From the IMG/VR virus record IMGVR_UViG_3300011871_000052: 64,000 nucleotides of DNA; one strand, written 5' to 3'. Below the pieces are notes generated by a model. It made no database searches, had not been told where the DNA came from, and worked only from the letters and a program-made list of their open reading frames with translations. Each line of letters begins with the position of its first letter. The first letter of the stretch is position 1. The DNA is from an uncultured virus (IMG/VR IMGVR_UViG_3300011871_000052). Taxonomy: Duplodnaviria > Heunggongvirae > Uroviricota > Caudoviricetes. The position numbers and the translations under genes are program-made. Shown here piece after piece: positions 4-59,749 of the stretch.

Positions 4-816
4 ATGAAGTATTTGAATTGTCCTGTAAGTATTGAAGAAGGTACAACTTTAAGAAATTTAATTTTATCCTTAGAGCCTTGGGCTGATATGTTAAGTCGTT
101 ATCTTGATGTTGATTTTAAGAGTTATGTAAAAGAAATAAAAAAAGAAACATTTCATGAAAAGTTAAAAAATGCATGGATTGGTATTGGTAAAAATATAAG
201 ATTTTCAATAGATTTCAAAAAAGAAAAAGATAATTTTGATTTTATAAATGGAGATATTAGAGATTATTTTAATAGAGAGATAAAATATACTGATGAAATA
301 GAAGACAATTTTAGTATAGAACAAGATTTATATGCTACTTATTATATAAAAGGGGAAGAAGAACATTATGGATTGAGTATAGAAAGAGTAAAAGATCTTC
401 CTGTAATTATAAATAAAAAAATAAACATAATAGATTTTACATCAAAAGATAAGCCAGAAGAAATGAGAGCATTAAATAGGAATGCGCACTCACTTAAAAA
501 TATAGATGGATTATCTTTTATTCCAGCTATTGAAGCATACTCTAATATGACTCTTACAGAAGTTTTAAAAGCTATATTTGATAACGGATTTTCTGCCTAT
601 TCTCCAGAAGTGTTTGAATATCATAAAGAGTTAATAACTCAGTCTTTAAATGGAGAAGTTAGAGATTCAGAAGATAATTGGTATGAAGAGCAGCTTGAAA
701 AGATATCTAAAATAAAAGAAAGAGTATATCCAAAAGAAAGTAGGCATGTAAACGTTGAGAATTTAAAAGAAGCTATTGTTCCTGAAGATAGAATCTATAA
801 CAAAATAATAAAGTAA
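4..816 (+). CDS. hypothetical protein (may extend 5' of the window)
   Basis: 270-aa ORF, no recognised motif. Confidence 0.7.
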   Translation: MKYLNCPVSIEEGTTLRNLILSLEPWADMLSRYLDVDFKSYVKEIKKETFHEKLKNAWIGIGKNIRFSIDFKKEKDNFDFINGDIRDYFNREIKYTDEIEDNFSIEQDLYATYYIKGEEEHYGLSIERVKDLPVIINKKINIIDFTSKDKPEEMRALNRNAHSLKNIDGLSFIPAIEAYSNMTLTEVLKAIFDNGFSAYSPEVFEYHKELITQSLNGEVRDSEDNWYEEQLEKISKIKERVYPKESRHVNVENLKEAIVPEDRIYNKIIK

Positions 817-838
817 TATTCAAATATTTAGATAAATA

Positions 839-874
839 AATTCAATAAGCGCAAACGGGATGCGCTTATTGAAT
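839..874. terminator. hairpin between convergent genes, probable terminator
   Basis: ATTCAATAAGCGCA-aacggga-TGCGCTTATTGAAT. Confidence 0.6.
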
Positions 875-875
875 A

Positions 876-1247
876 TCATGATGAAAAAGAAATATTAATA
901 TCAATACCATCATGACTGTTTTTTGTAGCTAAAATATTATAATTAATAAGTTTATTTTTATAATTAAAATATCCGTTTTCTCTACCAATAACGCTTTCAT
1001 TCGTTGTAGTATTATCAATATCAATATTTAAAAGAGTGGTTCCAAGGTTTTTGGCTATAAGATTAATTTCATCTGTAGAATAATTTTCAATCTCTTGATG
1101 ATAAACGCGAAGCTTACTACCTGTATGTGGTCGATATTCAATGAGTATGATTTTTTGAGGTGGAATAGCGGGCATAAGAATAGAATTTTCTGGATATAAC
1201 TTAGTATTATAAAGAGAAATGAAGAAATCTAGTATATTGTTATTCAT
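876..1247 (-). CDS. hypothetical protein
   Basis: 123-aa ORF with AAGGA RBS. Confidence 0.65.
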   Translation of the reverse strand: MNNNILDFFISLYNTKLYPENSILMPAIPPQKIILIEYRPHTGSKLRVYHQEIENYSTDEINLIAKNLGTTLLNIDIDNTTTNESVIGRENGYFNYKNKLINYNILATKNSHDGIDINISFSS

Positions 1248-1382
1248 GATTTTTCCTTAATTAATGTTTCAATAATATTATCATAAGAAAGAAAAATATC
1301 AAAAAATATAAATATTGGCTTGATTATCATTTTTTGTTGTGTAATAATAGTTTAAATAACATTTATAGGATAAGAGGTTTAC

Positions 1383-1517
1383 ATGAATTTCAACTTAACA
1401 GCTACTGCTAAAAACTTGAACGCTACTGCTAACGCAGTCAGCGTTGTTGCTGTTATGGGGATGGGACGCCGTGTGGTGGGTATGGGCGTATCTAAAATTC
1501 ATGGGAGCCGAATGTAA
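1383..1517 (+). CDS. leader peptide, 44 aa, MNFNLTATAKNLNATANAVSVVAVMGMGRRVVGMGVSKIHGSRM
   Basis: AGAGG RBS, sigma70-like promoter at about 1320-1348; 18 of codons 18-36 encode Ala/Val/Met/Gly/Arg; followed by attenuator hairpins. Confidence 0.85.
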   Translation: MNFNLTATAKNLNATANAVSVVAVMGMGRRVVGMGVSKIHGSRM

Positions 1518-1574
1518 AAGTAAAACTTAACATTCACAAAAACCGAAAGGCTCCTGAAAAGGAGCCTTTTTTAT
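1503..1574 (+). promoter_or_regulatory. transcription attenuator (antiterminator/terminator) upstream of the tRNA array
   Basis: terminator AAAGGCTCC-tgaaaa-GGAGCCTTT+T-run (1546-1574); competing GGAGCC at 1504-1509 inside the leader ORF can pair with GGCTCC; inner helix GAATGT/ACATTC. Confidence 0.8.
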
Positions 1575-1889
1575 TGGAAGAAACAAAATAAATCTAAAAC
1601 ATGACATGTTTTGGAATGATTGCTATTATATTAATATAAGTCATTGATTTAAAAGAAAATATTTTAAAAAAGTTATAAAAAAAGCTTGATTTTAAGAAAA
1701 AGATATCATAATNNNNNNNNNNNNNNNNNNNNNNNNNNNNNNNNNNNNNNNNNNNNNNNNNNNNNNNNNNNNNNNNNNNNNNNNNNNNNNNNNNNNNNNN
1801 NNNNNNNNNNNNNNNNNNNNNNNNNNNNNNNNNNNNNNNNNNNNNNNNNNNNNGCAAGATTCACTTCCTACAAAGTGGGTAGGAACAAT

Positions 1890-1965
1890 GGGGATGTAGC
1901 TCAATTGGGAGAGCATCTGCCTTGCAAGCAGAAGGTTGTGGGTTCGAAACCCATCATCTCCACCA
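1890..1965 (+). tRNA. tRNA-Ala(TGC)
   Basis: cloverleaf, G3:U70, encoded CCA. Confidence 0.97.
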
Positions 1966-2042
1966 GCACCTATAGCTCAATTGGATAGAGCGCTTGGCTA
2001 CGAACTAAGAGGTTGGGGGTTCAAATCCCTCTAGGTGTACCA
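1966..2042 (+). tRNA. tRNA-Arg(ACG)
   Basis: cloverleaf, loop CT-ACG-AA, CCA; no spacer after tRNA-Ala. Confidence 0.95.
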
Positions 2043-2049
2043 AAAATAT

Positions 2050-2125
2050 AGTCCATTAGCTCAATCGGGAGAGCGCTTCCTTTACACGGAAGAGGTAGTT
2101 GGTTCGAAACCGACATGGACTACCA
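2050..2125 (+). tRNA. tRNA-Val(TAC)
   Basis: cloverleaf, CTTCC-TT-TAC-AC-GGAAG, CCA. Confidence 0.95.
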
Positions 2126-2130
2126 AGTAT

Positions 2131-2206
2131 GCGAGAATAACTCAGTTGGTAGAGTGCTGTCCTTCCAAGTCAGATGTCGCGGGTTCGAGTCCCGTTTCTC
2201 GCTCCA
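2131..2206 (+). tRNA. tRNA-Gly(TCC)
   Basis: cloverleaf, U73-CCA, U-U mismatch in anticodon stem. Confidence 0.95.
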
Positions 2207-2215
2207 ATATAAAAT

Positions 2216-2294
2216 GCGCCGGAAGTTAAAGTGGAATGGTAACGCTACGCTACGAACGTAGAGCCTGCGAGTTCGAATCTCGCTCGGTGCTCCA
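2216..2294 (+). tRNA. atypical tRNA-Arg(ACG)
   Basis: CTACG-CT-ACG-AA-CGTAG, T-arm GCGAG-TTCGAAT-CTCGC, CCA; A8, 11-nt D-loop, G3:U70, U73. Confidence 0.8.
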
Positions 2295-2297
2295 AAT

Positions 2298-2404
2298 GTC
2301 AGAATAGGCCCAATGGGAAAGGCCGCCGCCCTCAAAGCGGGAATAGCGCTAATCGGATTGATCACCGATGTTCGACGAAGGTTCGAGTCCTTCTTCTGGC
2401 TCCA
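2298..2404 (+). tRNA. atypical tRNA-like RNA, apparent anticodon TCA, very long variable region
   Basis: acceptor GTCAGAA/TTCTGGC+T+CCA, D-stem GGCC/GGCC, 4-bp stem CCGC-CCTCAAA-GCGG, about 36-nt variable region, T-arm GAAGG-TTCGAGT-CCTTC. Confidence 0.7.
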
Positions 2405-2412
2405 TAATAAAT

Positions 2413-2488
2413 GCGAGTGTAACTCAGTTGGTAGAGTGCCGTCCTTCCAAGTCGGATGTCGCGGGTTCAAGTCCCGTCTCTCGCTCCA
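2413..2488 (+). tRNA. tRNA-Gly(TCC)
   Basis: cloverleaf, paralog of 2131-2206, CCA. Confidence 0.93.
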
Positions 2489-2561
2489 GTAAAAATAGTT
2501 TAAGTTATAGAATACTCTGACAACAGAGAGATGTTAGTGAAAAGCTAACTTTTTACACAAG

Positions 2562-2636
2562 GCAGATATAGTTTAATAGGTAGAATAAAACCTTGCCAAG
2601 GTTTAGGAACGAGTTCGAGCCTCGTTATCTGCTCCA
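2562..2636 (+). tRNA. tRNA-Gly(GCC)
   Basis: AAACC-TT-GCC-AA-GGTTT, U73-CCA. Confidence 0.93.
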
Positions 2637-2710
2637 CATAGTTTAAAAGCTTGATGTTTTCATAAAATACAATAAGATATTATTACGCAAATAATAATAG
2701 GAAAAACATT

Positions 2711-3178
2711 ATGAGAATAGAAAAAGATACATATTTACAAAATTTGAGAGTAGGTGATCTCAGACCAATTCAAGTTCCAGAATTGGCATTACTTCATACT
2801 CCTACGGAATATCAAGATTTTCCTGATGAGTTTTTTATGAGGGTAAAAGATGGAAGGATTCCTTTTGGTCAAGAACATGGATATTTATTTTTATCTAAAT
2901 TAGGTACAATATGTTTATTTGATAAAATTTTTGAAGTATTAAAAGAACAATATTTCGACAGTATAGAAGAAATAAAATCAACTTTATCAGAGGAATGTTG
3001 TCCTAATATAAGAAAATCTTATGAAGAATGGTTAGAAAAACTTGGAAAAGAACCAGAAAGAGAAGTTTATTTGAATAAAATATTAGATCAAATTGATAAA
3101 ATAGAGAAAAAAAGTATTAAGTTTTTTATAAAAAATCAGGATAAGTATTTGAATAAAATTTATAAGAAACGAGATTAA
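2711..3178 (+). CDS. hypothetical protein inside tRNA array
   Basis: 155-aa ORF with RBS and own promoter-like sequence. Confidence 0.75.
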   Translation: MRIEKDTYLQNLRVGDLRPIQVPELALLHTPTEYQDFPDEFFMRVKDGRIPFGQEHGYLFLSKLGTICLFDKIFEVLKEQYFDSIEEIKSTLSEECCPNIRKSYEEWLEKLGKEPEREVYLNKILDQIDKIEKKSIKFFIKNQDKYLNKIYKKRD

Positions 3179-3183
3179 GACGT

Positions 3184-3258
3184 GCGTGATTCGTATAGGG
3201 GCTAATATGTCAGGCTTCCACCCTGAAGACGAGGGTTCGATTCCCTCATCCCGCACCA
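3184..3258 (+). tRNA. tRNA-Gly(TCC), divergent, A73
   Basis: TCAGG-CT-TCC-AC-CCTGA, one acceptor mismatch, CCA. Confidence 0.85.
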
Positions 3259-3260
3259 AT

Positions 3261-3336
3261 GGTTTGTTAACTCAGTTGGTAGAGTGCTTCCCTTACAAGG
3301 AAGTGGTCATAGGTTCGAGTCCTATACAAACCACCA
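3261..3336 (+). tRNA. tRNA-Val(TAC)
   Basis: cloverleaf, CCA. Confidence 0.95.
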
Positions 3337-3410
3337 GCAGGTATATTTTAATGGTAGAATCAAACATTGCCAATGTTTAGATGCGGGTTCGATTCCCGCT
3401 ACCTGCTCCA
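3337..3410 (+). tRNA. tRNA-Gly(GCC)
   Basis: AAACA-TT-GCC-AA-TGTTT, U73-CCA. Confidence 0.93.
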
Positions 3411-3416
3411 ACGTAT

Positions 3417-3493
3417 GCGCCTATAGCTCAATTGGATAGAGTATTTGGCTACGAACCAAAGGGTTGGGGGTTCAAGTCCCTCTAGGTGCGCCA
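3417..3493 (+). tRNA. tRNA-Arg(ACG)
   Basis: cloverleaf, CCA, G3:U70 in acceptor. Confidence 0.95.
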
Positions 3494-3576
3494 TATCACA
3501 TAGATAGTATTTAAATTTGATCTTTCTTTTTTATTATGAGATGACTATTTTTTAATCATAATAAAAGGGGTGTGTT

Positions 3577-3795
3577 ATGGCAAATTTAGCAGATGTATTA
3601 GTGGTAGATTTTAATAATATATTTACAATATTTAAAGTAGGAATAGGATTTGCTTTCTTTTATTTTATATTTAATAGTATTTTCGACAAAGCATTAACTA
3701 ATAACAGAAACAATAAAAAAATAAGATCGGTTAATAAAAATAAAATAAACAATGAAAAAATAAAGCCAAATATAAAAGTTAGTTTAAAGAAATAA
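3577..3795 (+). CDS. small membrane protein inside tRNA array
   Basis: one hydrophobic segment, basic tail, RBS. Confidence 0.65.
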   Translation: MANLADVLVVDFNNIFTIFKVGIGFAFFYFIFNSIFDKALTNNRNNKKIRSVNKNKINNEKIKPNIKVSLKK

Positions 3796-3806
3796 TTTTA
3801 AATAGT

Positions 3807-3883
3807 GGTGAGATAGCTCAACAGGTTAGAGCACTGCACTCATAATGCAGAGGTTGAGGGTTCGACTCCCTCTCTCACTACCA
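3807..3883 (+). tRNA. tRNA with CAT anticodon, probably elongator Met (Ile2 not excluded)
   Basis: CTGCA-CT-CAT-AA-TGCAG, paired 1:72, no initiator GGG/CCC stem. Confidence 0.9.
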
Positions 3884-3957
3884 GCGAGTATAGTTCAGCG
3901 GTAGAATAAGACCTTGCCAAGGTTTAGACACGGGTTCGATCCCCGTTACTCGCTCCA
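3884..3957 (+). tRNA. tRNA-Gly(GCC)
   Basis: cloverleaf, U73-CCA. Confidence 0.95.
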
Positions 3958-3961
3958 AAAT

Positions 3962-4067
3962 GTCAGGTAGGCCGTTTGGTAACGGCGAGGCTATCGAAGC
4001 CTGAAAACTACGTTTTAATTTCATATTAAAATTAAATACATTGATAGTTCAATTCTATCACCTGACA
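3962..4067 (+). tRNA. atypical tRNA-like RNA, apparent anticodon TCG, very long variable region, no encoded CCA
   Basis: acceptor GTCAGGT/ACCTGAC, D-stem GCCG/CGGC, 4-bp stem AGGC-TATCGAA-GCCT, about 40-nt AU-rich variable region, T-arm GATAG-TTCAATT-CTATC. Confidence 0.65.
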
Positions 4068-4074
4068 CTTTAAT

Positions 4075-4151
4075 AGACAATTAGCTCAGTTGGTTAGAGC
4101 GTTGCCTTGACATGGCAAAGGTCATCAGTTCAAATCTGATATTGTCTACCA
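4075..4151 (+). tRNA. tRNA-Val(GAC)
   Basis: TTGCC-TT-GAC-AT-GGCAA, CCA. Confidence 0.95.
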
Positions 4152-4278
4152 CTTATATTTTTTAAATAATAACTCTCTATAATCTTAAATTAATAATATA
4201 GGTCACATTTTCTTGTTAAAATATTTTAAATATGATAGTTTTTAAATAATTAAATATTGTATCAAAGGAAATAAATAA

Positions 4279-4713
4279 ATGAATAAGTTAATCTTGAGTG
4301 CATGCGCCATATTATTAAGTGGATGTGTTTATGAACAAAGGCCAGCCCCTATTAATGATGTATCAATAATAGAGGAAAAACCTGTTCAGGTTCAACAACC
4401 AACATCTATGAGCTATCCTTTACCCTCTGCTCCACAAATAAATAATGTGGTTATAAATGAACCCCAACCTATACCAGATCCTGTTCCTGTTACAGAAGTT
4501 CCAAACGAAGAAATAGTAATAGATAGTAAGCCTATATCAGCAGAAACAACTCTTCCAGTAGAACAAGCAACTGTTGTAAATCCATCAGGAGAAAGTTTAA
4601 ATGATGTTGTAGATAGTATTATAGATGCTCCAGCTACTTCAACAAATAATCAAGCTCCAATGGGAACATTTAATAATCCAGTAAGGTTCGATCAATCTAA
4701 AGTATATAAATAA
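4279..4713 (+). CDS. proline-rich lipoprotein
   Basis: lipobox LSGC. Confidence 0.75.
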   Translation: MNKLILSACAILLSGCVYEQRPAPINDVSIIEEKPVQVQQPTSMSYPLPSAPQINNVVINEPQPIPDPVPVTEVPNEEIVIDSKPISAETTLPVEQATVVNPSGESLNDVVDSIIDAPATSTNNQAPMGTFNNPVRFDQSKVYK

Positions 4714-4777: not shown

Positions 4778-6232
4778 CTACCAATCTAAGCAAAGAGCTG
4801 TTTCACTACTATTTTTAACAGTTATCCTCCATTGATCAGCAGCATACTGCTCTACGCCTCTCCATGTATCGTTTTGGTCATTCTCATTACCGTATATTGA
4901 AACACAGACATCATGTTGACCAATATAAGAATAGTTATAAGAGTTATTATAGTTTGTATAAGTATAAAAAGTTTTATTCGGTTTTCCGCCACCAGATCTC
5001 CATACCCCATTAGTACATGATAATAATTGTCCTTCTGGACTTCTTCCTTGTAAACCATTAGGCGCACAACCAGTATTAATATATGCCACTCCATTGATTT
5101 GTAAATATTCATTAGTTGTCATACGACCTCCAGATACAACAGCCGCTGCACCATATACTTGACCATTAGCATCAATATTACCATTGGAATGAACATAACC
5201 TCCATAGAATCCTGCTGTAGTCTGAACATTTTTTCCACCAAAAGCATTTATAGTTGCAGTATCGCCCATGTTCCATCCACCACCATATTTCTGGAAATAG
5301 ATACCTCCATCACCTAATGTTCTGAACCAGTTTTGTGTATACGTTTCACCACGAGAAGTGACAGTAGTTCCCGAAACTGTATTATTAGAGTTTAAGTTTC
5401 CGTTAACTTGCCCATTTCCAGCAACATTAAGATCTGAACCTAATGTAGTAACACCTCCTACATTTAATGTTGTTCCAACAGTAGCAGCAGTATTTGCTTT
5501 TAATATTCCAGTAGTTGTTGTTCCTGATGCTGTTATATCCTGAGTGTTATAAATACTTTGACCACCCATGTTCAGGTTTCCAGTCATAGGAAGTGTTCCA
5601 TCACGTCTTAAGTAAACAGAATACATCGCACTATTATAACCAACCCTATATCCAAGCATACCTGCTTTAGCTATAGCAGGATAACCAGAAGATAAATAAT
5701 TCCAATTGTTTCCATAACCACTAAGTTGCGTTGCGGATTTCGTCATACCACTGTCTATACCAGCCGACTGCATAGCCTTACCCAACAAATCATAACGGAT
5801 ATTTCCACCCTCGATCCATGATGAGTTAGTAACAATAATACCATCTATAATATAATTGGGGCTGGTGCCAGAACGTTTTAATTGGATAGAATAATCAGAG
5901 CCAAAACTATTTCTAGCAACATAAGTTGATGGAAGAAGACCTTCATTAATTAATGTTTGGTAACTAATGCTACATACTGAATTAGAAGTAGTACAAGTTC
6001 TTGGTCCCGGATCGGTTCCAGTTCCTGTTGAATTAGATAAAGTTGATAGCTTATCATAACGAATATTAATATACCCATTAACCGCTTCACCTAATTGTTT
6101 TATTTGTTGACCTGCTGCCGATGCTTTTACTTCTTCCTGATCATGCAACATATCCTGAAATTTTAAAAAAGCTAAAGTTGTACCTACTCCTAGAACAAGA
6201 ATTAGCTCCAATAAACTGAATCCGTTTTTCAT
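4778..6232 (-). CDS. pilV: type IVb pilus tip adhesin, PilV (shufflon N-terminal constant region) family
   Basis: prepilin motif GFSLLE, YLRRDGTLPMTGNL, LLSCTNGVW junction then a short variable C-terminus. Confidence 0.85.
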   Translation of the reverse strand: MKNGFSLLELILVLGVGTTLAFLKFQDMLHDQEEVKASAAGQQIKQLGEAVNGYINIRYDKLSTLSNSTGTGTDPGPRTCTTSNSVCSISYQTLINEGLLPSTYVARNSFGSDYSIQLKRSGTSPNYIIDGIIVTNSSWIEGGNIRYDLLGKAMQSAGIDSGMTKSATQLSGYGNNWNYLSSGYPAIAKAGMLGYRVGYNSAMYSVYLRRDGTLPMTGNLNMGGQSIYNTQDITASGTTTTGILKANTAATVGTTLNVGGVTTLGSDLNVAGNGQVNGNLNSNNTVSGTTVTSRGETYTQNWFRTLGDGGIYFQKYGGGWNMGDTATINAFGGKNVQTTAGFYGGYVHSNGNIDANGQVYGAAAVVSGGRMTTNEYLQINGVAYINTGCAPNGLQGRSPEGQLLSCTNGVWRSGGGKPNKTFYTYTNYNNSYNYSYIGQHDVCVSIYGNENDQNDTWRGVEQYAADQWRITVKNSSETALCLDW

Positions 6233-6446
6233 AAATACCTTTTTTACCATATATTAAACTTTAGCCCGCATTAAATTTACTTTAAGTACAAATAAAACAA
6301 TATTAAAAATATAATTTAACGTCAATAGTGTTGTATAGTTATAAATGTTTTAAGTGTAATTAATTGTTTTTACTTAAAAATATTGCACTATTTTTACTAA
6401 GTGTTACGATTCATAGGTAAAAATAAATAAAATAAGAGGATATATA

Positions 6447-6926: not shown

Positions 6927-8729
6927 ATGAAATTAAAGAAGGGGTTTAGCTTACTTGAATTAACATTAGTGCTTGGTATAGGCGTTGCTGTAGCATTTAT
7001 AAAATTTCAAGATATGAAAAATGAACAGGAAAATATAAATGCTGATATAGCAGGGCAAGAGATACAAAGAATAGGAAATGCAGTTAATAATTACATTTCG
7101 CTAAGATATGATAAACTATCAACCTTATCTAATGCCGCTGGAAATGGAACCGATCCGGGGCCAAGAACTTGTTCGGGTAGTATTTGTACTATAACATATC
7201 AAACATTAATAAATGAAGGAATATTACCATCTGGATATGTTCCTAAAAATTCATTTTCATCTACAGATTATACTATCCAACTTAAACGTTCTGGCACCAG
7301 CCCCAATTATGTTATAGATGGCGTGGTTTTAACTAATGCAGCTTGGGTCGAAGGTGGCAGAGTACGTTATGATTTGTTGGGTAAAGCTATGCAATCAGCA
7401 GGAATTGATAGCGCCACTACTAAAACAACATCTCAAATGAATGGTTTTGGAGGAACATGGACATTACAACAAAGTGATTTTTCCGCTATAAATAAACAAG
7501 GACTGTTAGGTTTTAGAGTAGGATATAATGCATCTTTATACTCTGCGTATTTACGCCGTGATGGAACTCTCCCCATGACCGGAAATCTGGACATGGGCGC
7601 TAATGATATATCAAATGCTAAAAACGTAACAGCTTCTGGAACAGGAACATTTGGAGGGGAGGGATATTTTGGCAGTAATGTTAATTCTGGTGGAAATATA
7701 ACAGCAGCAGCTCAGGTTATAGCTCATAATGGTTATGGTGATAAAATAACATTAGGTGGAGATGCCGCTGGAGGAGACTATGAAATAAGATTAGATAATG
7801 GAGCAAGGGGTTTAAGTATATATTCTCCAAATGCTGCAGATTATACTACAGTCTTAAGCGTTTATAAAAACACACAAATACAGCAAAGGCTTGCCACAAA
7901 TGGTTTAAACCCAAATGAAATGCCTCCGGGATTCAGTGCGGGTGGTGTGAGAACAGTTGATGTTGTAGCAACAGGTTCATTTTATTCGATTTTAGCAGGA
8001 ACAACGATTTCAGAAGGAAAATTTGGTTTCTATGCTAGACAAGATGGTAATGTTAAAGCTTCTGGAAATATGACAGTAGATGGTAGAATAAAAACAGGTG
8101 AATATTTAGAAATAGGAAGCGTTGTAACTGCTGGATCCTCGTGTTCTCCAGCAGGATTATTAGGTAGAGATAGTACGGGTCAAGTTTTAAGTTGTAAAGG
8201 TGGAATATGGAGTCCAGAAATGCCTGTAGGCATACCTCAACCTTGGCCTTCTGCAACAATACCAGCAGGATGGTTAGAATGTAATGGTCAAGCCTTTAAT
8301 AAATCGCAGTATCCATTACTTGCTAAAGCATATCCATCTGGTGTTCTTCCAGATTTGAGAGGGCAGTTCATAAGAGGTTTGGATAATGGTAGAGGTAAAG
8401 ACTCAGGAAGAACATTACTCAGTGAGCAAAGAGCTTCTGTAGTAACAGGAACGGATGATAACTGGGCTTCTTCTGATGTTGGAGCGCTGCATGGCCCAAG
8501 TTCAGCATATTCAAGAGACACCATAAATGTTTATGATTATACAACAGGAAGTAATGGTCAAGATCCTAAATATTATCTTGGTTTCGGTGGTTCAACCACA
8601 GGTCCTTCATTGGGAAGTAGTGAATCAGGTAATGGCGGTATACCCTTAGTCAATAATGGTTCTAATGGTTTTTATGGTGGGGCAAGACCAACTAACACCG
8701 CTTTTATGTATATTGTAAGAGCATTATAA
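6927..8729 (+). CDS. pilV: PilV-family adhesin fused to phage tail-collar/tail-fibre tip domain
   Basis: GFSLLE prepilin N-terminus; after VLSCKGGIW comes PVGIPQPWP...GWLECNGQAF...YPLLA...LPDLRGQFIRGLDNGRG. Confidence 0.85.
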   Translation: MKLKKGFSLLELTLVLGIGVAVAFIKFQDMKNEQENINADIAGQEIQRIGNAVNNYISLRYDKLSTLSNAAGNGTDPGPRTCSGSICTITYQTLINEGILPSGYVPKNSFSSTDYTIQLKRSGTSPNYVIDGVVLTNAAWVEGGRVRYDLLGKAMQSAGIDSATTKTTSQMNGFGGTWTLQQSDFSAINKQGLLGFRVGYNASLYSAYLRRDGTLPMTGNLDMGANDISNAKNVTASGTGTFGGEGYFGSNVNSGGNITAAAQVIAHNGYGDKITLGGDAAGGDYEIRLDNGARGLSIYSPNAADYTTVLSVYKNTQIQQRLATNGLNPNEMPPGFSAGGVRTVDVVATGSFYSILAGTTISEGKFGFYARQDGNVKASGNMTVDGRIKTGEYLEIGSVVTAGSSCSPAGLLGRDSTGQVLSCKGGIWSPEMPVGIPQPWPSATIPAGWLECNGQAFNKSQYPLLAKAYPSGVLPDLRGQFIRGLDNGRGKDSGRTLLSEQRASVVTGTDDNWASSDVGALHGPSSAYSRDTINVYDYTTGSNGQDPKYYLGFGGSTTGPSLGSSESGNGGIPLVNNGSNGFYGGARPTNTAFMYIVRAL

Positions 8730-8759: not shown

Positions 8760-9500
8760 TTAAATACTAACAATTTTTAAAGGATCGAATTGCTTGTTTT
8801 CTCCATGATACCCACGAGGATTACAAACAATTCTAACAGTGTCACCTAACATATAATCCATAGAATCATGAGTATGTCCATGAATAGCTAAAACTAAGTT
8901 ATCACTATATAGCAATAAGTTAGATAGATTTGATGCCATCCCCGCATTGAATGGAGAGTTAATAAATCTATCAGAGATACTACTTAAAGTAGGAAGATGA
9001 TGTGTAATAAGCACCTTCTTTGTATAATTTTTAGCTAATTCATTTTCAATGAAATAAAGGCTCTTTTCAAACTCTCTTTGATAGTCAGCAATGGATATTA
9101 AATCTGTTTTCTGTTCATTAAAAATCTTTTTAAAGTCACAAAAAGCATTCTTGATCGCAATCTGATTAATCGGATCAGCATTAATATTACTCCATAAAGT
9201 AGAGCCAATAAAATGAACTCCATTAATCTCTATAGTTTCATTATCAAGAATGTAAAGGTTAGGAATGTTTAAAGCTTTCCATGCCTCAACAGTTTCTTTG
9301 ATAGAATAACCTAGAGGTTCATGGTTTCCCATAATCATGATAGTAGTAATCTGAGAAGCGCACTCACGAACAAAATCAGACTGAAAAGTATAAGAACTAA
9401 TGTCTCCTGCTAAAATTAAGATGTCAGCATTTTCCGCTTTTTCGAACTTAAAGCTGTTATCATGCTCTAAATGTAAATCACTCATAATTTGAATATTCAT
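8760..9500 (-). CDS. calcineurin-like metallophosphoesterase
   Basis: SDLH, AGD, GNHE, THH, HGHTH motifs. Confidence 0.9.
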   Translation of the reverse strand: MNIQIMSDLHLEHDNSFKFEKAENADILILAGDISSYTFQSDFVRECASQITTIMIMGNHEPLGYSIKETVEAWKALNIPNLYILDNETIEINGVHFIGSTLWSNINADPINQIAIKNAFCDFKKIFNEQKTDLISIADYQREFEKSLYFIENELAKNYTKKVLITHHLPTLSSISDRFINSPFNAGMASNLSNLLLYSDNLVLAIHGHTHDSMDYMLGDTVRIVCNPRGYHGENKQFDPLKIVSI

Positions 9501-9617
9501 ATTTTAAATCTCTTTTTTAACAGATAGTCAGTATAGCAAAAAGTCTTATTAAATTCAAACCTTGTGTTTCAGTAGATAAAAATGATATTATAGTAAAAAA
9601 TCATCTGGAGGAAAAAC

Positions 9618-9896
9618 ATGGGCGAGTATAAACAAATAGAAACACTTGAAGATTATGATAAGATTGATGATGAACAATGTGTAAAAGGCTATATGTCAGG
9701 ACTTAGTGGAGAAGAGTTACCTTCTCCTCATCTCTACACAAGAAGTTTTTATCATGGATATCTTAATGGTTTAGTTGATAGTGGAAGAAGAAAAATAGAT
9801 AGTAAACAGTTGGAACTTGTATATCAGTTACGTTCAAGTGGCAAATTAAAAGAGTTAGGATTGGTTCTTCAATCATTCATTTCTGTTCAGCATTAG
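9618..9896 (+). CDS. hypothetical protein
   Basis: ORF with GGAGG RBS. Confidence 0.7.
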   Translation: MGEYKQIETLEDYDKIDDEQCVKGYMSGLSGEELPSPHLYTRSFYHGYLNGLVDSGRRKIDSKQLELVYQLRSSGKLKELGLVLQSFISVQH

Positions 9897-9915
9897 TCGA
9901 TCACAGGAGAGTTTA

Positions 9916-10155
9916 ATGAATATAAAAGAAATGATTGAAAATGGATTAGAGATAGTTGTAGATATGAATCCAACAATAGAACAAAATGTAGCGATAAAGT
10001 TTATTTTTGGAAAAATAATGAGTGGAGAAAAAAGAGAGATTTTCGAAGTACCTATAAATTATATTGATAGTATATCTCTTTTACTAAAAGAAAATAATAT
10101 AAAATACAAAATAGAAAATAATAATGAATATGTAAGTAACATTATAAAATTATAG
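9916..10155 (+). CDS. hypothetical protein
   Basis: ORF with AGGAG RBS. Confidence 0.65.
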   Translation: MNIKEMIENGLEIVVDMNPTIEQNVAIKFIFGKIMSGEKREIFEVPINYIDSISLLLKENNIKYKIENNNEYVSNIIKL

Positions 10156-10225
10156 CTTTTATTAGATTAAAAAGCTGTTATAATTTAAAGATATGGAATT
10201 TTTTAATTATAAGGTTTTTAACTAA

Positions 10226-10822
10226 ATGGAAAAGAGTAATTTAAAGTTTGAAGAAGTAAAAAGAGAAAGAACATATGATGGTTTTTTAAAAATAGACAAA
10301 ATTTATTTTAAACAAGAAGATGTTTTTGGAGTATGGACAGAAGAGTTTACCAGAGAAGTTGTATATAGAAGAAATGCTGTTGCAGTATTAATAAGAGATC
10401 CTAAAACAGACACTCTCTTATTTACAAAACAGTTAAGAGCAGGAGCTTATATTCAAGCTGAACCTTGGATATATGAAATGGTAGCAGGATTAATAGACGA
10501 AGATGAAGATAAAATAACGGCCCTTAAAAGAGAAGTAAAAGAAGAAGCTGGTATAGAGAAAATAAGTAATATAAAAGAGATATCGCAATATTATCCATCG
10601 TGCGGAGGATGTTCAGAGAAAGTATTTTTATATTATGCTGAAGCAGATTTAAGTGAGGTTCCTGAATATGGTGGTTGTCCAGAAGAGCATGAAGTTATTG
10701 AAACTCTTGTTATAAGCGTAGATGAAGCTTTTAAATGGCTTGAGCAAGGAAAGTTAGGTACAGCTAATGGACATACAGCATTGTATTGGTTAATGAAAGA
10801 AAGATTACTTAAAAGAATATAA
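10226..10822 (+). CDS. Nudix hydrolase, ADP-ribose pyrophosphatase (NudF-like)
   Basis: Nudix box GLIDEDEDKITALKREVKEEAG, Q-x-R, YPSCGG. Confidence 0.88.
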   Translation: MEKSNLKFEEVKRERTYDGFLKIDKIYFKQEDVFGVWTEEFTREVVYRRNAVAVLIRDPKTDTLLFTKQLRAGAYIQAEPWIYEMVAGLIDEDEDKITALKREVKEEAGIEKISNIKEISQYYPSCGGCSEKVFLYYAEADLSEVPEYGGCPEEHEVIETLVISVDEAFKWLEQGKLGTANGHTALYWLMKERLLKRI

Positions 10823-10937
10823 AAAATAAAAGAGGCTGCGAGCCTCTTTTTTATTTAAAATGCAAATAAAACTTGCTTTATCTTACTTATTGTATTATTA
10901 TCAATAACTATAGAAGATAATAAAAAGGTAGATAAAA

Positions 10938-11519
10938 ATGACTAAACAGCTTGGTTTTAAAGAAGTAGCAAAAGAACGTGCGTATGCTGGTTTTATTAAA
11001 GTAGATAAGTTAACTCTTACTCAAGAGCTTCCTGATGGTAGCTGGACTAAACCGTTTACGCGAGAGTTGATTAATCGTGGTCATGCAGCCGCTGTTCTGA
11101 TTAAAGATCCGGCAACAGAAACATTTTTATTTACTAAGCAATTTCGTCCGGGTAGCTATGCTAATGGTCAGCCGTGGATGTATGAAGTTGTAGCTGGCAT
11201 GTTAGATGGTGATGAAGATCCGGTTGAAACAATCAAACGTGAAAGTATGGAAGAGGCTGGCGTTACAGAGCTTAGTAATATTGAGTTTATTTCTGAATAT
11301 TATCCTTCTTGCGGTGCTTGTAGTGAAAAAGTCAGTCTTTATTATGCGGAAGCGGATTTAAGTAATCTTCCGCGATATGCTGGTTGTTCTAATGAAGATG
11401 AGCTGATTGAGATTTATACTTGTTCAGTAGATGAAGCATTTAAGATGTTGAAAGAAGGCAAGTTAAATGCTGGAACTAATAATATTGCTCTTTATTGGTA
11501 TATGGCTAATAAAAAATAA
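10938..11519 (+). CDS. Nudix hydrolase, NudF-like, tandem paralog
   Basis: Nudix box GMLDGDEDPVETIKRESMEEAG. Confidence 0.88.
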   Translation: MTKQLGFKEVAKERAYAGFIKVDKLTLTQELPDGSWTKPFTRELINRGHAAAVLIKDPATETFLFTKQFRPGSYANGQPWMYEVVAGMLDGDEDPVETIKRESMEEAGVTELSNIEFISEYYPSCGACSEKVSLYYAEADLSNLPRYAGCSNEDELIEIYTCSVDEAFKMLKEGKLNAGTNNIALYWYMANKK

Positions 11520-11663
11520 ATATAAAAAAAATATGAAGCAACCTCCGGGTTGCTTTTTTTTTTGGAAAAAACTGGAAAAATATTTGTTGTAAGTGACACT
11601 TTATTTTGTTACACTTATTTTAAACCAAGAATAAACAAATAAGTAATAAGGAGCCGTATTTTA

Positions 11664-12578
11664 ATGATTAATATTTATACCCATTGTGATTCCTTTCATG
11701 CTGATGAGTTAATGGCAATTGCCTTGTTAGCAAGATTTCATTTTGATGTTTCTGTGGAAGACCTCAACGTTATTCGAACCCGCGATGAAAATATCCTTTC
11801 TGTAGCCAAAAATAGTAATGATTTTGTTATTGATGTTGGTAGAGAATACAATTCTGAAAAATTAAACTTTGATCATCATCAATCAGATCCTAACTTAGTA
11901 TGGGAAAATGGTGGGCCATTATCTTCTTGTGGTCTTATTTTTAGATGGCTAAAAAAAGAAGGAAAACTAAAATCTATTTCAGATTATACGATCTCAAAAT
12001 TAGCAGATTTTGCTTACACTGTTGATCAGCATGATAATGGTAAACAAATTTGGGAAGATAATAAGTTTTTCAGAGCATATAATCATTCTGATGATAGAGT
12101 TATTGAAAATAAACAGTTTAGAAAAGCTTTAAGAGCAGCAGAAGATTATGTGGATAATCTTATCTTTAAAGCTGAGCTAGAAAAAGAAAACAATGAAAAA
12201 ATTGAAAAAGCTATCAAAGAAAGTATTGATAATAATCATGAAGATTTTTTAATTGTATATGATTCATTACCGGGCGGTAGAGATATTGCTGTAGAGAAAT
12301 CGAAAGCAAAATTATATATTGCTGGTTATAAAGATGAAGAAAAAGGATTAATGGAATGGTCAGTAAAATCTATTCCTTCTGATATAAACGATCCCTTTAG
12401 TTCGCGTCAAAGAATGCCTAAAGCATGGTGTGGAGTTGAAGGACAAGCACTGAAAGATATATCCGGTTTTAATCTCCGTTTTTGTCATAAAGGTGGTTTT
12501 ATTTGTGTGTTAGAAGGTTCAGAACAGGAAGTAAAAGAGTTAGCAAAAACCATTATTAATATTGAAAAAGCGGAGTAA
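11664..12578 (+). CDS. MYG1-family (DHH-like) exonuclease
   Basis: TH..SFHADE, RTRD, DVG, FDHHQ, SSCGL, FCHKGGF. Confidence 0.88.
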   Translation: MINIYTHCDSFHADELMAIALLARFHFDVSVEDLNVIRTRDENILSVAKNSNDFVIDVGREYNSEKLNFDHHQSDPNLVWENGGPLSSCGLIFRWLKKEGKLKSISDYTISKLADFAYTVDQHDNGKQIWEDNKFFRAYNHSDDRVIENKQFRKALRAAEDYVDNLIFKAELEKENNEKIEKAIKESIDNNHEDFLIVYDSLPGGRDIAVEKSKAKLYIAGYKDEEKGLMEWSVKSIPSDINDPFSSRQRMPKAWCGVEGQALKDISGFNLRFCHKGGFICVLEGSEQEVKELAKTIINIEKAE

Positions 12579-12582
12579 GAAT

Positions 12583-12885
12583 ATGAGCAATACTAAGATA
12601 AGAAGTTATACAAAAGTAGAATCCAATCCAGAAGAACTAAATTTTTTGTGCTGGTTTCACCAAAATAGATTTGAAAAAGCATTAAGTAAAAATGATAAAT
12701 TTCTAATAATGAAGCAATTTAAACAGGATGTTCATAATTTTCTAAAAGGTGTAGGTAAAAGTAAGTTAAATGAAATGGCATTTAAGCAAGAGTGGGATTT
12801 AATTTTCGAAGAATCATGGCAACAAGGTATGAAAACAAATATAACAGAAGTTGGTTTTATTCTTCATTCAAAACTATCTAAATAG
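12583..12885 (+). CDS. hypothetical protein
   Basis: ATG after GGAG RBS, coupled to the MYG1 gene. Confidence 0.65.
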   Translation: MSNTKIRSYTKVESNPEELNFLCWFHQNRFEKALSKNDKFLIMKQFKQDVHNFLKGVGKSKLNEMAFKQEWDLIFEESWQQGMKTNITEVGFILHSKLSK

Positions 12886-13010
12886 AATAATCAAACTAAA
12901 GAATACCTAAAGCCTGAAATAGAAAACTTCAGGCTTTTTTGTTTTAGTACTATACGGAAAATATTTTACCAAGTATAATAGTAAAATATCATGTTAAAAA
13001 GGATAAATAA

Positions 13011-14219
13011 ATGACTGTAAAAATTAAAGTGCCAGAAACGGATTTTCCATACATTGAAAATCTCTCTCAAATGAAATCGATTTTAGAAGCTAAACCAGAG
13101 TTAAGATTGATAGATAGTGGTCTTGGAACATTATCTGTAGCTTACAATATTTCAGATAGGAACACTTTTAAAGATCCGTTAGCTTGTGAAGCAAGAGGTA
13201 TCACATTTGATAAAGAAACTGGAAATATTATAGGTAGGCCGCTACATAAATTCTTTAACCTTGGAGAAAGAGAGGATACGTTAAAAAATAATGTAAACTT
13301 TTCTGATATTTTTTCTATTTGGGATAAAATAGATGGAACAATGATTTCTCTACATAGAGTTAATGGTAATCTTGCTGTAAAAACCAAGAAAAGTTTTTTG
13401 AGTAATGAAGCTAAAAGAGCAACTCAGTTCTTATCAAAACCAGAAAACCAGAATATTTTAAAGTTCTGTAATGAGTTAGTAGATGAGTTTACGCCAGTAT
13501 TTGAGTTTACAGATCCAGAAAACACAATAGTTATTAGTCATAAAAAAATGGATGTTGTTTTACTTCATGTAAGACATATAAAAACAGGAAGTTATATTCC
13601 TTACAACGATCCTGATCTAACAGCATTAGTAGAAAAATATAATGTAAAAAGATTATCGCCATTAAATCTTAAGCAAACAGAAAAAGGCACTCTTGATATA
13701 GATTCTGTTTTGGAAGATTTAAAAGTTATTGAAGGCATTGAAGGATATGTAATGCAATTTAATGATGGAAGAATGATTAAGATAAAAAGTGATTGGTATA
13801 ATGCTCAACACAGAGCAGAAGCAGGATTAAGAGAAAGAGATGTTGTTAAGATGTTCTTGGATGGTACTCTTGACGATGTTAAGGGGGCTTTAAAAACAGA
13901 CGGCTATGATATTACTAAGCTTGAATCTATAGAAAGTAATGTTCTAGCAGAGCTAAATAAAATGGAAACATATATAACAGAAAAAGTTGAATTATTAAAA
14001 GGGCTGGATATGAAATCTGCGGCTCTTAAGATAAATAATGAGATGCCTAATAATCCATTAAATGGTTTTGTATTAATATCATTAAGAGGTAAAGAACCAG
14101 ATCTAATGACTTATTTTGAAAGAAATAAACTTCAAGATTATAGCTTAGCCTATCTGGAGCTGCCCAAATTAGAAAATGAAAAAGAAGCATCGGTAGTAAG
14201 AAGTAGAAAAATGAAATAA
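13011..14219 (+). CDS. T4 Rnl1 (RnlA)-family RNA ligase
   Basis: EARGI.F, HKFFNLGE, motif I KIDGT, FEF, EGYV, KIKSDWY. Confidence 0.9.
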   Translation: MTVKIKVPETDFPYIENLSQMKSILEAKPELRLIDSGLGTLSVAYNISDRNTFKDPLACEARGITFDKETGNIIGRPLHKFFNLGEREDTLKNNVNFSDIFSIWDKIDGTMISLHRVNGNLAVKTKKSFLSNEAKRATQFLSKPENQNILKFCNELVDEFTPVFEFTDPENTIVISHKKMDVVLLHVRHIKTGSYIPYNDPDLTALVEKYNVKRLSPLNLKQTEKGTLDIDSVLEDLKVIEGIEGYVMQFNDGRMIKIKSDWYNAQHRAEAGLRERDVVKMFLDGTLDDVKGALKTDGYDITKLESIESNVLAELNKMETYITEKVELLKGLDMKSAALKINNEMPNNPLNGFVLISLRGKEPDLMTYFERNKLQDYSLAYLELPKLENEKEASVVRSRKMK

Positions 14220-22987: not shown

Positions 22988-23962
22988 ATGAAAATTGTAG
23001 AACTGATGAAACAATCCGTAGCTAAATATGACCATAATACGAATGGTGATTGGGTAATCGCTTATTCTGGTGGTGTAGATTCTCGCGTAATGCTGGATGT
23101 TTTATCTTCTATTAAACCAGATGGTAAGAAAATCAAACTTCTTCATGTCAATCATGGCCTGAATGTTTTGGCTGAAGCTTGGGAGCATCAAGCTATTGAA
23201 ACAGCTAAAATCTATGGTGCTGAGATTAAAGTGGCTCATCTCAATATGAAAGATACTTCTGGTATTGAAGAAAAAGCCAGAGAACTTCGTTATGAATTTA
23301 TTAATGCTAACACCAAAGAAGGTGATATTCTTTTCATGGGGCATCATAAGAATGATAATGCTGAAACTATTTTATTCCGTCTTTTCCGTGGAACAGGTAT
23401 TAAAGGTTTAATGGGGATTCCAGAATCACGCATGATGGGTAATGCTTTATTGGTTCGCCCTATGTTAAATGTTCTCCGTCAAGATATTAAATCATACGCT
23501 TTAGAAAAAGGCTTACAGTGGGTAGAAGATGATTCCAATAGTGATTCAAAATACAGCCGTAACTTCATTCGTAATGAAGTACTTCCATTAGTAGGTAGCC
23601 GTTGGAAAGCCGTTATTTCTAATATTACTGCTTTAACAGAAAAAGCTCAAGAAGCTGAATCACTTCTTAATGAAATTGCTAAAGAGGATCTGGAAGCAAT
23701 TAAATTTGTAGATAAAGCTGGAGTAAGTCATAATGATATCCTTGATATGGACAAACTTAAATCTCTTTCAACTTCTCGTATGAAAAACGTTTTACATCGT
23801 TATGTTGAGAGTATTGATGAAGAAAACAAAGGAACTAAAAACTTTAATAACCTACTAAATGTTGTGTTGAGTGAAAATAAAAATTGTTCTAAACTAAGAA
23901 AAGTTCAATTTAAAAATGGTCAGCTACTGACAAATGGTAGAAAAATTTGGATTGAAAAATGA
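22988..23962 (+). CDS. tilS: tRNA(Ile)-lysidine synthetase, short form
   Basis: SGGVDS PP-loop, HVNHGL, ARELRY, GHHKNDNAET, RPML, DDSN...RNFIR. Confidence 0.92.
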   Translation: MKIVELMKQSVAKYDHNTNGDWVIAYSGGVDSRVMLDVLSSIKPDGKKIKLLHVNHGLNVLAEAWEHQAIETAKIYGAEIKVAHLNMKDTSGIEEKARELRYEFINANTKEGDILFMGHHKNDNAETILFRLFRGTGIKGLMGIPESRMMGNALLVRPMLNVLRQDIKSYALEKGLQWVEDDSNSDSKYSRNFIRNEVLPLVGSRWKAVISNITALTEKAQEAESLLNEIAKEDLEAIKFVDKAGVSHNDILDMDKLKSLSTSRMKNVLHRYVESIDEENKGTKNFNNLLNVVLSENKNCSKLRKVQFKNGQLLTNGRKIWIEK

Positions 23963-31682: not shown

Positions 31683-32714
31683 TTAAAACTGAATTCCTAA
31701 TCCTAAAGATTTTTTCACTTTATTGACAGTATCAGAAGCAATATTTTTAGCAGAAAATGTTCCCTCTTTTATTATTTGTTTAATTTGGTCTTCTTCAATT
31801 AAAGCACGTCTTTTCTGTATGGGATCAAAAAATTCTAAAAGAACATCAGAAAGTATTTTTTTTACGGTGCTATCACCAAGGCCACCTCTCTGATAATGTT
31901 TTTTAAGGTCCAAAACTAAGTTTTTATCATGATGAAAAGCATCCAAATATGAAAATACAGTGTTGCCTTCTATTTTTCCGGGGTCTGATATGCGAAGATG
32001 GTTAGGATCAGTGTACATTTTTTTAACTGTTTTAATAATTTCATCATTAGTAGCATTAAGATTTAAAGTATTCCCTAAACTTTTTCCCATTTTACTATTT
32101 CCATCTATACCGGGAAGTCTTGCTGATGAACTAAGCATAGGCGAACATGTTTTAAGGATATTTTGGCCTACGTTTCTATTAAAAGAAGCAGCTATTTCAT
32201 TAGCTTGTTCGATCATAGGAAGCTGATCTTCACCTACAGGAACTATATCTGCATTAAATGCTAAAATATCTGCGGCCTGACTAATAGGATAAATCAAAAA
32301 ACCAGTTGGAATATTACGGGGTATATATTCCATTTCTGTCTTTTCAGTAGTAAATCGTTGGAATATTTCATGTCTAATAGTAGGATTTCTCTCTAAACGA
32401 GAAACAGTAACAAAGTTTGTGAAATAGAAGGTTAGTTCAAATAACTCTGGAATAGCAGATTGAAGAAAAATTGTTGTTTTACTTGGATCTATGCCAACAG
32501 AAAGATAATCCTCAACAACTTGAAAAATAGCTTTTTGAACCTTTTCTTTATTATCAATGTTATCTGTATATGCTTGAGCATCAGCAATCATAATAAAAGA
32601 TTGATGACTATCTTGTATAGCAACTCTGTTTAAAAGACTTCCTACTAGGTGTCCAATATGTAAAGGTCCAGTAGGGCGATCACCAGTTAAACTGATAGGG
32701 AGATGTTTATTCAT
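31683..32714 (-). CDS. trpS: tryptophan--tRNA ligase (TrpRS II-like)
   Basis: GDRPTG.LHIGH, YPISQAADI, VPVGEDQ, KMGKS, MYTDP. Confidence 0.95.
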   Translation of the reverse strand: MNKHLPISLTGDRPTGPLHIGHLVGSLLNRVAIQDSHQSFIMIADAQAYTDNIDNKEKVQKAIFQVVEDYLSVGIDPSKTTIFLQSAIPELFELTFYFTNFVTVSRLERNPTIRHEIFQRFTTEKTEMEYIPRNIPTGFLIYPISQAADILAFNADIVPVGEDQLPMIEQANEIAASFNRNVGQNILKTCSPMLSSSARLPGIDGNSKMGKSLGNTLNLNATNDEIIKTVKKMYTDPNHLRISDPGKIEGNTVFSYLDAFHHDKNLVLDLKKHYQRGGLGDSTVKKILSDVLLEFFDPIQKRRALIEEDQIKQIIKEGTFSAKNIASDTVNKVKKSLGLGIQF

Positions 32715-55683: not shown

Positions 55684-55814
55684 TGTACATAATCCTTATT
55701 AAAGTTTATAAAAAGATTATATAGAAATATTGAGTCTAAATAAAGAAAAAAGTTGTAACTCTAAGAAAAGTTTGTTATATTAAAGACCTTAACACATAAA
55801 GCCGAGGATATAAT

Positions 55815-55997: not shown

Positions 55998-56026
55998 AAA
56001 AAGAAAAGCACCTCACGGTGCTTTTT

Positions 56027-59715: not shown

Positions 59716-59749
59716 AAAGAAAGGCTTAGTCAACTAAGCCTTTTTTATT

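Follow-up and report, generated by a model that had tools for sequence, protein, structure and literature searches.

A leader unit at positions 1320-1575 of a 64,000-nucleotide stretch of DNA from an uncultured virus (IMG/VR record IMGVR_UViG_3300011871_000052; the whole stretch is hereafter called the window) precedes an array of transfer RNA (tRNA) genes, and its short open reading frame (ORF) contains a run of codons matched to the tRNAs of that array. The unit is self-contained, with a promoter (P1), a ribosome-binding site, the ORF, a hairpin (hairpin C), and a strong intrinsic terminator. It is a ~220-nt RNA conserved far beyond the surrounding protein genes and belonging to no known family. 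That an ultra-conserved leader, matched in its codons and without a second example in the window, accompanies the array is most simply accounted for by a functional link through decoding, and attenuation is the sole mechanism for such a link with its parts visibly in place. The best single reading of the unit, a tentative one, is a ribosome-sensed transcription attenuator that adds P1 transcription to that of the array. The wider proposal, that this multivalent leader of a mobile element, probably a large phage, acts as a sensor of decoding capacity in which slowed decoding of Val, Gly and Arg (perhaps Met) codons raises transcription of the cognate tRNAs, is quite tentative.

Organization and conservation of the leader unit

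All of the parts named in an earlier note on this DNA (a ribosome-binding site, here AAGAGG, a 44-codon ORF at 1383-1517, the terminator and the codon run) are found in the sequence, together with P1. P1, located by a consensus scan on the plus strand (1320-1348), comprises TTGATT at 1320-1325, a 17-nt spacer and AATAAT at 1343-1348, the latter preceded by TG. The site AAGAGG (1372-1377, plus strand) lies 5 nt 5' of the ATG of the leader ORF (plus strand; 44 codons plus TAA), which encodes the peptide MNFNLTATAKNLNATANAVSVVAVMGMGRRVVGMGVSKIHGSRM. The intrinsic terminator (1545-1575, plus strand) has an 11-bp stem (1545-1555/1560-1570), a GAAA loop and a T6 tract at 1567-1572, and folds alone with -17.8 kcal/mol. 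As in an attenuator, it stands between the leader ORF and the tRNA genes.

Five relatives of the locus (L002-L006) were found in metagenomes by a back-translated pattern search. Two of them, L003 and L006, are identical to the window in the aligned flanks; L005 and L002 make up a second lineage, and L004, on a 1.3-kb contig, a third. The same tRNA array follows the leader in every one of them, at a distance of ~250-300 nt, and the short ORF and ribosome-binding site of the leader are on the same strand as the tRNA genes. The P1 hexamers are unchanged in all five, with variation at two spacer bases, and the ribosome-binding site is invariant. The ORF is open in all six DNA copies and in 28 peptide variants, including one with an in-frame insertion of three codons. 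The terminator of L004 retains a GNRA loop (GGAA) and has one G-U pair.

Comparison of the window with L005 separates the leader from its neighbors. Identity is 70.6% (nucleotide) and 45% (protein) for the upstream 123-aa gene and 81.7% and 79%, respectively, for a 155-aa ORF inside the array, versus 98.5% for codons 24-45 of the leader ORF and 91.4% for hairpin C plus the terminator. Only 1 of 20 four-fold sites has changed in the leader, compared with 18 of 31 in the two neighboring genes (Fisher p=1e-4), and these near-frozen four-fold sites indicate that the leader is under strong selection at the nucleotide level. Across the DNA copies, the core of the ORF differs by a single nucleotide change, CGT to CGC. 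The N-terminal half, with changes counted by eye from the alignment of relatives, has 10 changed codons, one of them synonymous (4, 6 and 3 changes at codon positions 1, 2 and 3). Non-synonymous change at the N-terminus combined with a retained fold is expected of a leader in which the reading frame and the fold matter and the peptide does not.

The peptide family is narrow, with 28 distinct variants of 73-100% identity, all of which share an identical core, VMGMGRRVVGM (codons 24-34, 1452-1484), between variable flanks. Two variants differ at their ends. In P0008, the TAA is replaced by CAA and a second TAA follows two codons on, and in P0001, found on one 1.4-kb contig only, Met44 is fused to the 3' arm of the terminator; the tail of the latter would fit a 42-nt deletion of the stop codon, hairpin C and the 5' arm, yielding what may be a terminator-less leader.

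Correspondence between leader codons and the tRNA array

The codon run (codons 18-36, 1434-1490, plus strand) reads as the earlier note had quoted it: 18 of its 19 codons specify Ala, Val, Met, Gly or Arg, the Val and Gly families are each represented by all four of their codons, and Arg is encoded only by CGC and CGT. Elsewhere in the six frames of the 64 kb, no stretch of 19 codons has as many as 14 of this kind. The statement that AGA is common elsewhere in the element also holds, as AGA accounts for 57.5% of Arg codons in the 53 long ORFs of the window. The choice of codons in the run is atypical: in the same ORFs, GGG, GGC, GTG and GTC each make up 5-11% of their own codon families. The chance of drawing four different Gly codons under local usage is 0.033, and the G+C content of third codon positions in the core is 5/10, compared with ~0.17 expected (p=0.017).

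The array (1890-4151, plus strand) contains 14 genes called by ARAGORN: Ala-TGC, three Arg-ACG (one of them aberrant), two Val-TAC, Val-GAC, three Gly-TCC, three Gly-GCC and one with anticodon CAT. ARAGORN and Rfam together confirm the anticodon set proposed earlier (TGC, ACG, TAC, GAC, TCC, GCC and CAT only), to which some tRNA-like pieces have to be added. Within the run, the Gly tRNAs would read GGG and GGA (UCC) or GGT and GGC (GCC), the Val tRNAs GTG and GTA (UAC) or GTC and GTT (GAC), and the Arg tRNA CGC and CGT (ACG). The invariant core codons specify Val, Met, Gly and Arg only, the four specificities of every related array. In L006, 25 of 43 leader codons match the amino acids of the downstream tRNA block, versus a 24% background (binomial p=1.5e-6). 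By comparison, when 29 tRNA blocks from the phages Cronobacter S13, Stenotrophomonas Moby and Aeromonas phiWae14 are scored in this way, the best upstream ORF scores 1.2e-5 and lies inside tRNA genes, and the next scores 1.4e-2; none of the 29 has a convincing matched upstream ORF by this crude test on mixed arrays. An origin of the core as a decayed tRNA or repeat was considered and rejected, for it shares only chance words of 11-13 nt with the array or the rest of the window.

RNA fold and attenuator geometry

The leader RNA folds with z=-5.4 into four parts: a long-range pairing of 1376-1389 with 1496-1509, a core hairpin, hairpin C and the terminator. In the 3' strand of the long-range pairing, a predicted switch segment (1496-1509, plus strand), positions 1496-1503 pair with the start region (1382-1389), and positions 1506-1509 pair with 1376-1379 in the ribosome-binding-site region (helix 1 of the consensus) in the closed fold. 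The segment GGGAGCC at 1503-1509 (element 2) has alternative partners, either 1376-1379 or the 5' arm of the terminator. The earlier note had proposed that GGAGCC (1504-1509), which is identical to the terminator 3' arm at 1561-1566, pairs with GGCTCC (1549-1554); the pairing itself stands, whereas its length is revised to 7 nt, GGGAGCC, including a G-U pair. Hairpin C (1510-1535, plus strand; 6-bp and 4-bp stems) spans the TAA and stacks on the antiterminator.

Pairing in the relatives is largely retained. The stems of hairpin C are invariant, with all three changes confined to its apical loop. Elsewhere in the fold, two double changes (A-U to G-C and G-C to A-U) and five changes of G-U type preserve pairs, and one pair is broken. 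Across five aligned rows, from which the structure itself was derived, pairing is present in 99.4% of cells, versus ~40% with partners slid. Conservation of the fold in the relatives is thus suggestive, not proof. In L004, both element 2 (A1506) and the terminator 3' arm have changed from A to G opposite an unchanged 5' arm, such that both pairings survive as G-U; this joint change is a single event, but unlikely if element 2 and the 3' arm were unrelated.

Pairing probabilities computed in silico show the antiterminator at 0.04 without a ribosome. In the nascent RNA with everything 5' of the ribosome removed, GGGAGCC:GGCUCCU on hairpin C is the minimum-free-energy structure, at -16 kcal/mol and P ~1.0. 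The antiterminator excludes the terminator in these calculations, and its pairing is kept in all five relatives. The TAA (1515-1517) lies 6 nt past element 2, and from an A site at codon 40 to the stop codon P(2:3)=0, in agreement with the earlier suggestion that a ribosome at the stop codon masks GGAGCC. Of 20,000 dinucleotide shuffles, 0.8% contain, in the 91 nt upstream, a stretch of at least 6 nt complementary to the 5' arm of the terminator; among the other 51 terminator-like hairpins of the window, 2 have such a complement.

Proposed mechanism

In an untranslated RNA, 1376-1389 would pair with 1496-1509, GGGAGCC would be held in that helix, and the terminator would form. A ribosome that reaches the TAA would cover GGGAGCC and hairpin C, and the terminator would form in this case too. 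A ribosome slowed on the run of Val, Met, Gly and Arg codons would instead leave GGGAGCC free as the 5' arm GGCUCCU emerges, allowing GGGAGCC:GGCUCCU to pair on hairpin C (~-16 kcal/mol) in place of the terminator, such that transcription from P1 might pass P2, a second promoter described below, and enter the tRNA genes. The output would be extra transcription of Val, Gly, Arg and CAT tRNAs above the level set by P2, a potential feedback on decoding capacity. We infer that the ORF is translated, that ribosomes stall on it, and that read-through rises when tRNAs are short, uncharged or cleaved by host nucleases. The RNA-repair genes nearby, including a ligase of the T4 RnlA type, fit a setting in which the host attacks tRNAs.

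Findings that weigh against attenuation

Several results count against this reading. A promoter, P2 (1686-1712, plus strand), intervenes between the terminator and the genes that would be regulated. It consists of TTGATT, a 17-nt spacer, and TAAT at the start of a run of N (TAATAT in the relatives), and lies 110 nt past the terminator, with the first tRNA 25-45 nt after the -10 element in the relatives. The -10 is kept in all five relatives and the -35 in four (TTGCTT in L004); the spacer differs at 0-5 positions (3-5 in L002, L004 and L005). Because this conserved sigma-70-type promoter stands between the terminator and the array, read-through would only add to array transcription, and the earlier idea that it switches the array on has to be given up. 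The TTGATT at 1686, originally entered as a mere caveat, is part of a promoter conserved in the relatives. The sequence gap (N) between the terminator and the first tRNA, the other reservation voiced at the time, is bridged by L003 and L006, which have Val-TAC and CAT tRNA genes there, between P2 and tRNA-Ala.

Two further features occupy the interval between terminator and P2. An A/T-rich block of 30 nt directly upstream of P2 (1643-1672, plus strand), invariant in all six copies, may be an UP element. An inverted repeat, AAAACAT-GAC-ATGTTTT (1596-1612), just 3' of the terminator, may be an operator; its arms AAAACA/TGTTTT are kept, and its center differs in the L005, L002 and L004 types. The word GCTTGAT was rejected as a special promoter signature (15 matches versus 9.2 expected).

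The folding calculations also set limits. With a 30-nt footprint masked and nothing else removed, the antiterminator prevails for A-site positions at about codons 33-36 only (0.27-0.99). The proposal that a stalled ribosome frees GGAGCC thus holds in silico with upstream RNA removed and, with a bare footprint, at about those codons only. Left to equilibrate, the full-length RNA invariably forms the terminator (P=0.999), as classical attenuators likewise do. A scan of Rfam finds no leader family at the gathering threshold; the best match, Phe_leader, scores 26.3 bits versus 55 (E=0.48) and covers the terminator only. Covariation statistics are thin, as the DNA copies represent about three independent lineages. 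Terminators of the same style follow most genes of the window, so that one placed after a small gene is routine. Contigs from RNA libraries cover the leader (X17, 256 nt over 1309-1564) and run across the terminator (X18, 271 nt, from 1514 to past 1712), and a third library, X16, has a contig of 1859 nt; but such libraries may contain DNA, contigs show no start, end or level, gaps in their coverage carry no meaning, and these contigs are not decisive on expression.

The codon match is itself incomplete. Val, Gly and Arg-CGN codons are cognate to the array in all loci; Ala fails in three of the five relatives (L002, L004 and L005), where six Ala codons are retained in the leader of a locus that has no tRNA-Ala. 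The CAT tRNAs may be tRNA-Ile2, which would take Met out of the match; this possibility is raised because a homologue of TilS, the tRNA lysidine synthetase (22988-23962), passes its curated cut-off (168 bits versus 93.6), and it is noted alongside the share of ATA among Ile codons in the window, 41%. The earlier claim that one leader monitors five amino acids is thereby weakened, as the codon match holds for Val, Gly and Arg, fails for Ala in those relatives, and is uncertain for Met. Finally, G+U-rich helices by themselves push a frame towards Val and Gly codons. Countering such a bias, codon position 2 of the run holds only U, G or C, whereas position 3 holds all four bases.

Alternative explanations

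The alternative that survives best, a doubtful but serious possibility, is a stand-alone structured or dual-function RNA with its own promoter and terminator, the array being transcribed from P2 alone. The ORF would then be incidental or minor, and its Val, Gly, Met and Arg content a by-product of G+U-rich helices. This explanation accounts for conservation as well as attenuation does: synonymous sites are almost frozen in the leader (1/20 versus 18/31 in its neighbors), compensatory changes keep the multi-helix fold (z=-5.4), and every conserved part of the ORF falls in a helix. It is also in keeping with the conservation of P2, with the terminators found after most genes, and with a peptide that has no family and that AlphaFold2 models only as a single helix (scores given below). 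It leaves several features unexplained. The sole such codon run in 64 kb would lie by coincidence beside the tRNAs that read it, the restriction of position 2 to U, G and C against all four bases at position 3 would have no cause, and neither the kept ribosome-binding site, ATG, frame and in-frame indel nor the attenuator geometry of element 2, stop codon and hairpin C would be accounted for. A short-word BLAST search of the window, moreover, found no complementary target for such an RNA.

Less probable, indeed unlikely, is a gene for a small functional peptide of which VMGMGRRVVGM is the active part, possibly serving as a tRNA-dependent timing device, with the terminator merely ending the gene. 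The invariance of the core in 28 variants with variable flanks, the retention of ribosome-binding site, ATG and frame, and the presence of the family on hundreds of contigs count in its favor. Half of the peptide, however, evolves without amino-acid constraint (9 of the 10 changed codons are non-synonymous), and protein function does not require frozen synonymous sites. The peptide matches no Pfam, PHROG or NCBIfam family and has no usable look-alike in a protein atlas. A hidden Markov model (HMM) search of 1.84 billion representatives returned nothing but its own cluster at E below 1e-10, along with three matches near 5e-4, each covering a short part of a long protein. Modelling with AlphaFold2 gives a single helix of low confidence (predicted local distance difference test, pLDDT, 65; predicted template-modelling score, pTM, 0.25), leaving the peptide with neither a domain nor a confidently predicted fold.

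A type I toxin-like small gene, its mRNA closed by 5'-3' pairing, is very improbable: the start region is indeed sequestered by the 3' end of the ORF, and a minus-strand promoter-like site (1653 to 1625) faces the terminator, but the peptide has no transmembrane or uninterrupted hydrophobic stretch, two Arg residues splitting its hydrophobic part, and nothing in this explanation ties the gene to the array.

Relation to known regulatory systems

Leader-peptide attenuation is textbook control of amino-acid biosynthesis and of one synthetase operon. The multivalent leaders of the enterobacterial ilvGMEDA, ilvBN and thr operons share with the present unit, as interpreted here, a short ORF with several kinds of regulatory codon, a terminator, a competing upstream segment that is masked by a ribosome at the stop codon, and sequestration of the start region in the terminated RNA. 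They differ in output, which is biosynthetic enzymes there and would be tRNAs here, and in the conserved promoter that here separates the terminator from the output. In addition, the 5' partner of segment 2 is here the start region, not the regulatory codons, and the unit belongs to no leader family of Rfam. The pheM leader of pheST likewise subjects a component of translation to leader-peptide attenuation by the supply of charged tRNA; there a single enzyme, phenylalanyl-tRNA synthetase, which serves one amino acid, is the output, whereas here it would be tRNAs for three or four. T-box riboswitches share a leader RNA whose choice between terminator and antiterminator reports tRNA status. They bind tRNA directly and need no ribosome, in contrast to the mechanism proposed here, and the Rfam scan gave no T-box match at E up to 1.

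The terminated leader transcript may also be compared with rnTrpL of Sinorhizobium, an attenuator-derived small RNA that encodes the peptide peTrpL (PMC6614838, PMC7968998). The shared trait would be a terminated leader transcript that persists as a small RNA with a function of its own and a small peptide encoded in it, and that is stable; rnTrpL derives from a trp attenuator, and for the leader described here no trans target is known. Phage tRNAs are reported to counter tRNA-targeting defense (PMC11464382, PMC11555353). As in those systems, tRNA genes of a mobile element would here replace host tRNAs, with RNA-repair genes nearby. The opening parts of those abstracts name no sensing leader, and a counter-defense role of the present array is putative. 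Full-text searches assessed at the level of abstracts yielded no account of leader-peptide attenuation before tRNA genes.

If the attenuation reading is correct, tRNA genes of a mobile element would respond to how well their own codons are decoded, and this feedback would maintain or restore the supply of tRNAs whenever those of the host are uncharged, scarce or cut. Such a loop would be relevant to the question of whether phages carry tRNA arrays to supply codons or to escape defenses that target tRNAs, and would constitute a compact sensor, of natural origin, for the speed at which several codon families are decoded. Even without attenuation, the unit is notable as a highly conserved RNA outside known families.

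Further features of the tRNA array

Two ORFs lie inside the array (2711-3178 and 3577-3795). The aberrantly shaped tRNA is the Arg-ACG call at 2216-2294, whose anticodon falls at position 37. Two paralogous tRNA-like pieces, 2298-2401 and 3958-4074, start with ATGTCAG..TAGGCC; the first has a long extra arm and a fold no better than shuffles (z=-0.24), and the second carries an AT-rich insert and has a cloverleaf-like fold (z=-5.3). A further AT-rich tRNA-like sequence of 69 nt (2489-2557) scores 37 bits in Rfam. The only CAT tRNAs seen are those in the array.

Syntenic arrays are present in L002, L003, L005 and L006, and the contig of L004 ends after two tRNA genes. The CAT tRNA is the first of the array in L002, L004 and L005. 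The tRNA-Ala(TGC) of the window (1890-1965) is homologous to a 73-nt tRNA in these three loci whose anticodon loop is 2 nt shorter and which occupies the same slot (L005 6490-6562, L002 5474-5546, L004 1194-1266); it is called Trp-CCA in L002 and L004 and TCA in L005. The spacer of ~113 nt between the CAT tRNA and tRNA-Ala is conserved in the relatives (L006 6446-6558). Its last 36 nt correspond to 1854-1889 of the window and contain a 7-bp hairpin (1865-1871/1879-1885); the spacer was assigned to no Rfam family. After the array, L005 alone carries an insertion (9156-10807) with a partial match to HEARO RNA (28.4 bits, below gathering) and, after it, an HNH-type ORF of 432 aa; the insertion looks like an IscB/OMEGA-type element.

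Distribution and genomic context

The leader peptide is present on 332 contigs, and in identical form on contigs of up to 1.37 Mb. The 413-nt stretch 1300-1712 is represented by 100% of its sampled words in 15 sequencing runs and by at least half of them in 19 runs from 13 studies of very different habitats (freshwater, marine, soil, microbial mat and money, with partial representation in insect gut, mouse and plant); this oddly uniform spread might reflect a cosmopolitan organism or a contaminant. No close relative of the element was found in phage, plasmid or viral-contig collections. Against phages and plasmids, positions 800-4300 gave tRNA-level matches only. A blastn search of the leader against phages gave a single 43-nt match (E=0.01), and tblastn of its peptide against the phage collection found no relative. 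In viral contigs, neither relatives of two neighboring proteins nor matches to back-translated core patterns were found, and a scan of species genomes gave a single 12-residue chance match in an Acidobacteria bin.

The window is AT-rich, with 24-37% G+C per 2-kb window and mostly below 30%. Nearly every gene or gene pair ends in a terminator-like hairpin of one style (A-tract, GC-rich stem, T-tract); the 52 counted over both strands are readable on either, so that many represent one hairpin counted once per strand.

The element looks like a large phage, but the contigs of up to 1.37 Mb that carry the identical peptide and the lack of close relatives in the phage, plasmid and viral-contig collections count against a firm assignment, and it may instead be part of a cell. 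RNA-repair and nucleotide genes cluster at 8760-14219 and 54853-60460, and include the RNA ligase of the T4 RnlA type (13011-14219), a second ligase-like gene (59750-60460), a PNK-like ATPase (58001-59047), two metallophosphoesterases, MYG1, two NUDIX genes and a MazG-like gene. A TrpRS gene (31683-32714), two Dam-type methylases, an NAD kinase and many ORFs without a family are also present. Family searches identified tail-fiber genes with Shufflon_N and tail-collar domains; the two tail-fiber-like genes of the Shufflon_N (PilV) type lie at 4778-6250 (minus strand) and 6927-8729 (plus strand), one with a type IV pilin-like N-terminus and the other with a phage tail-collar domain.

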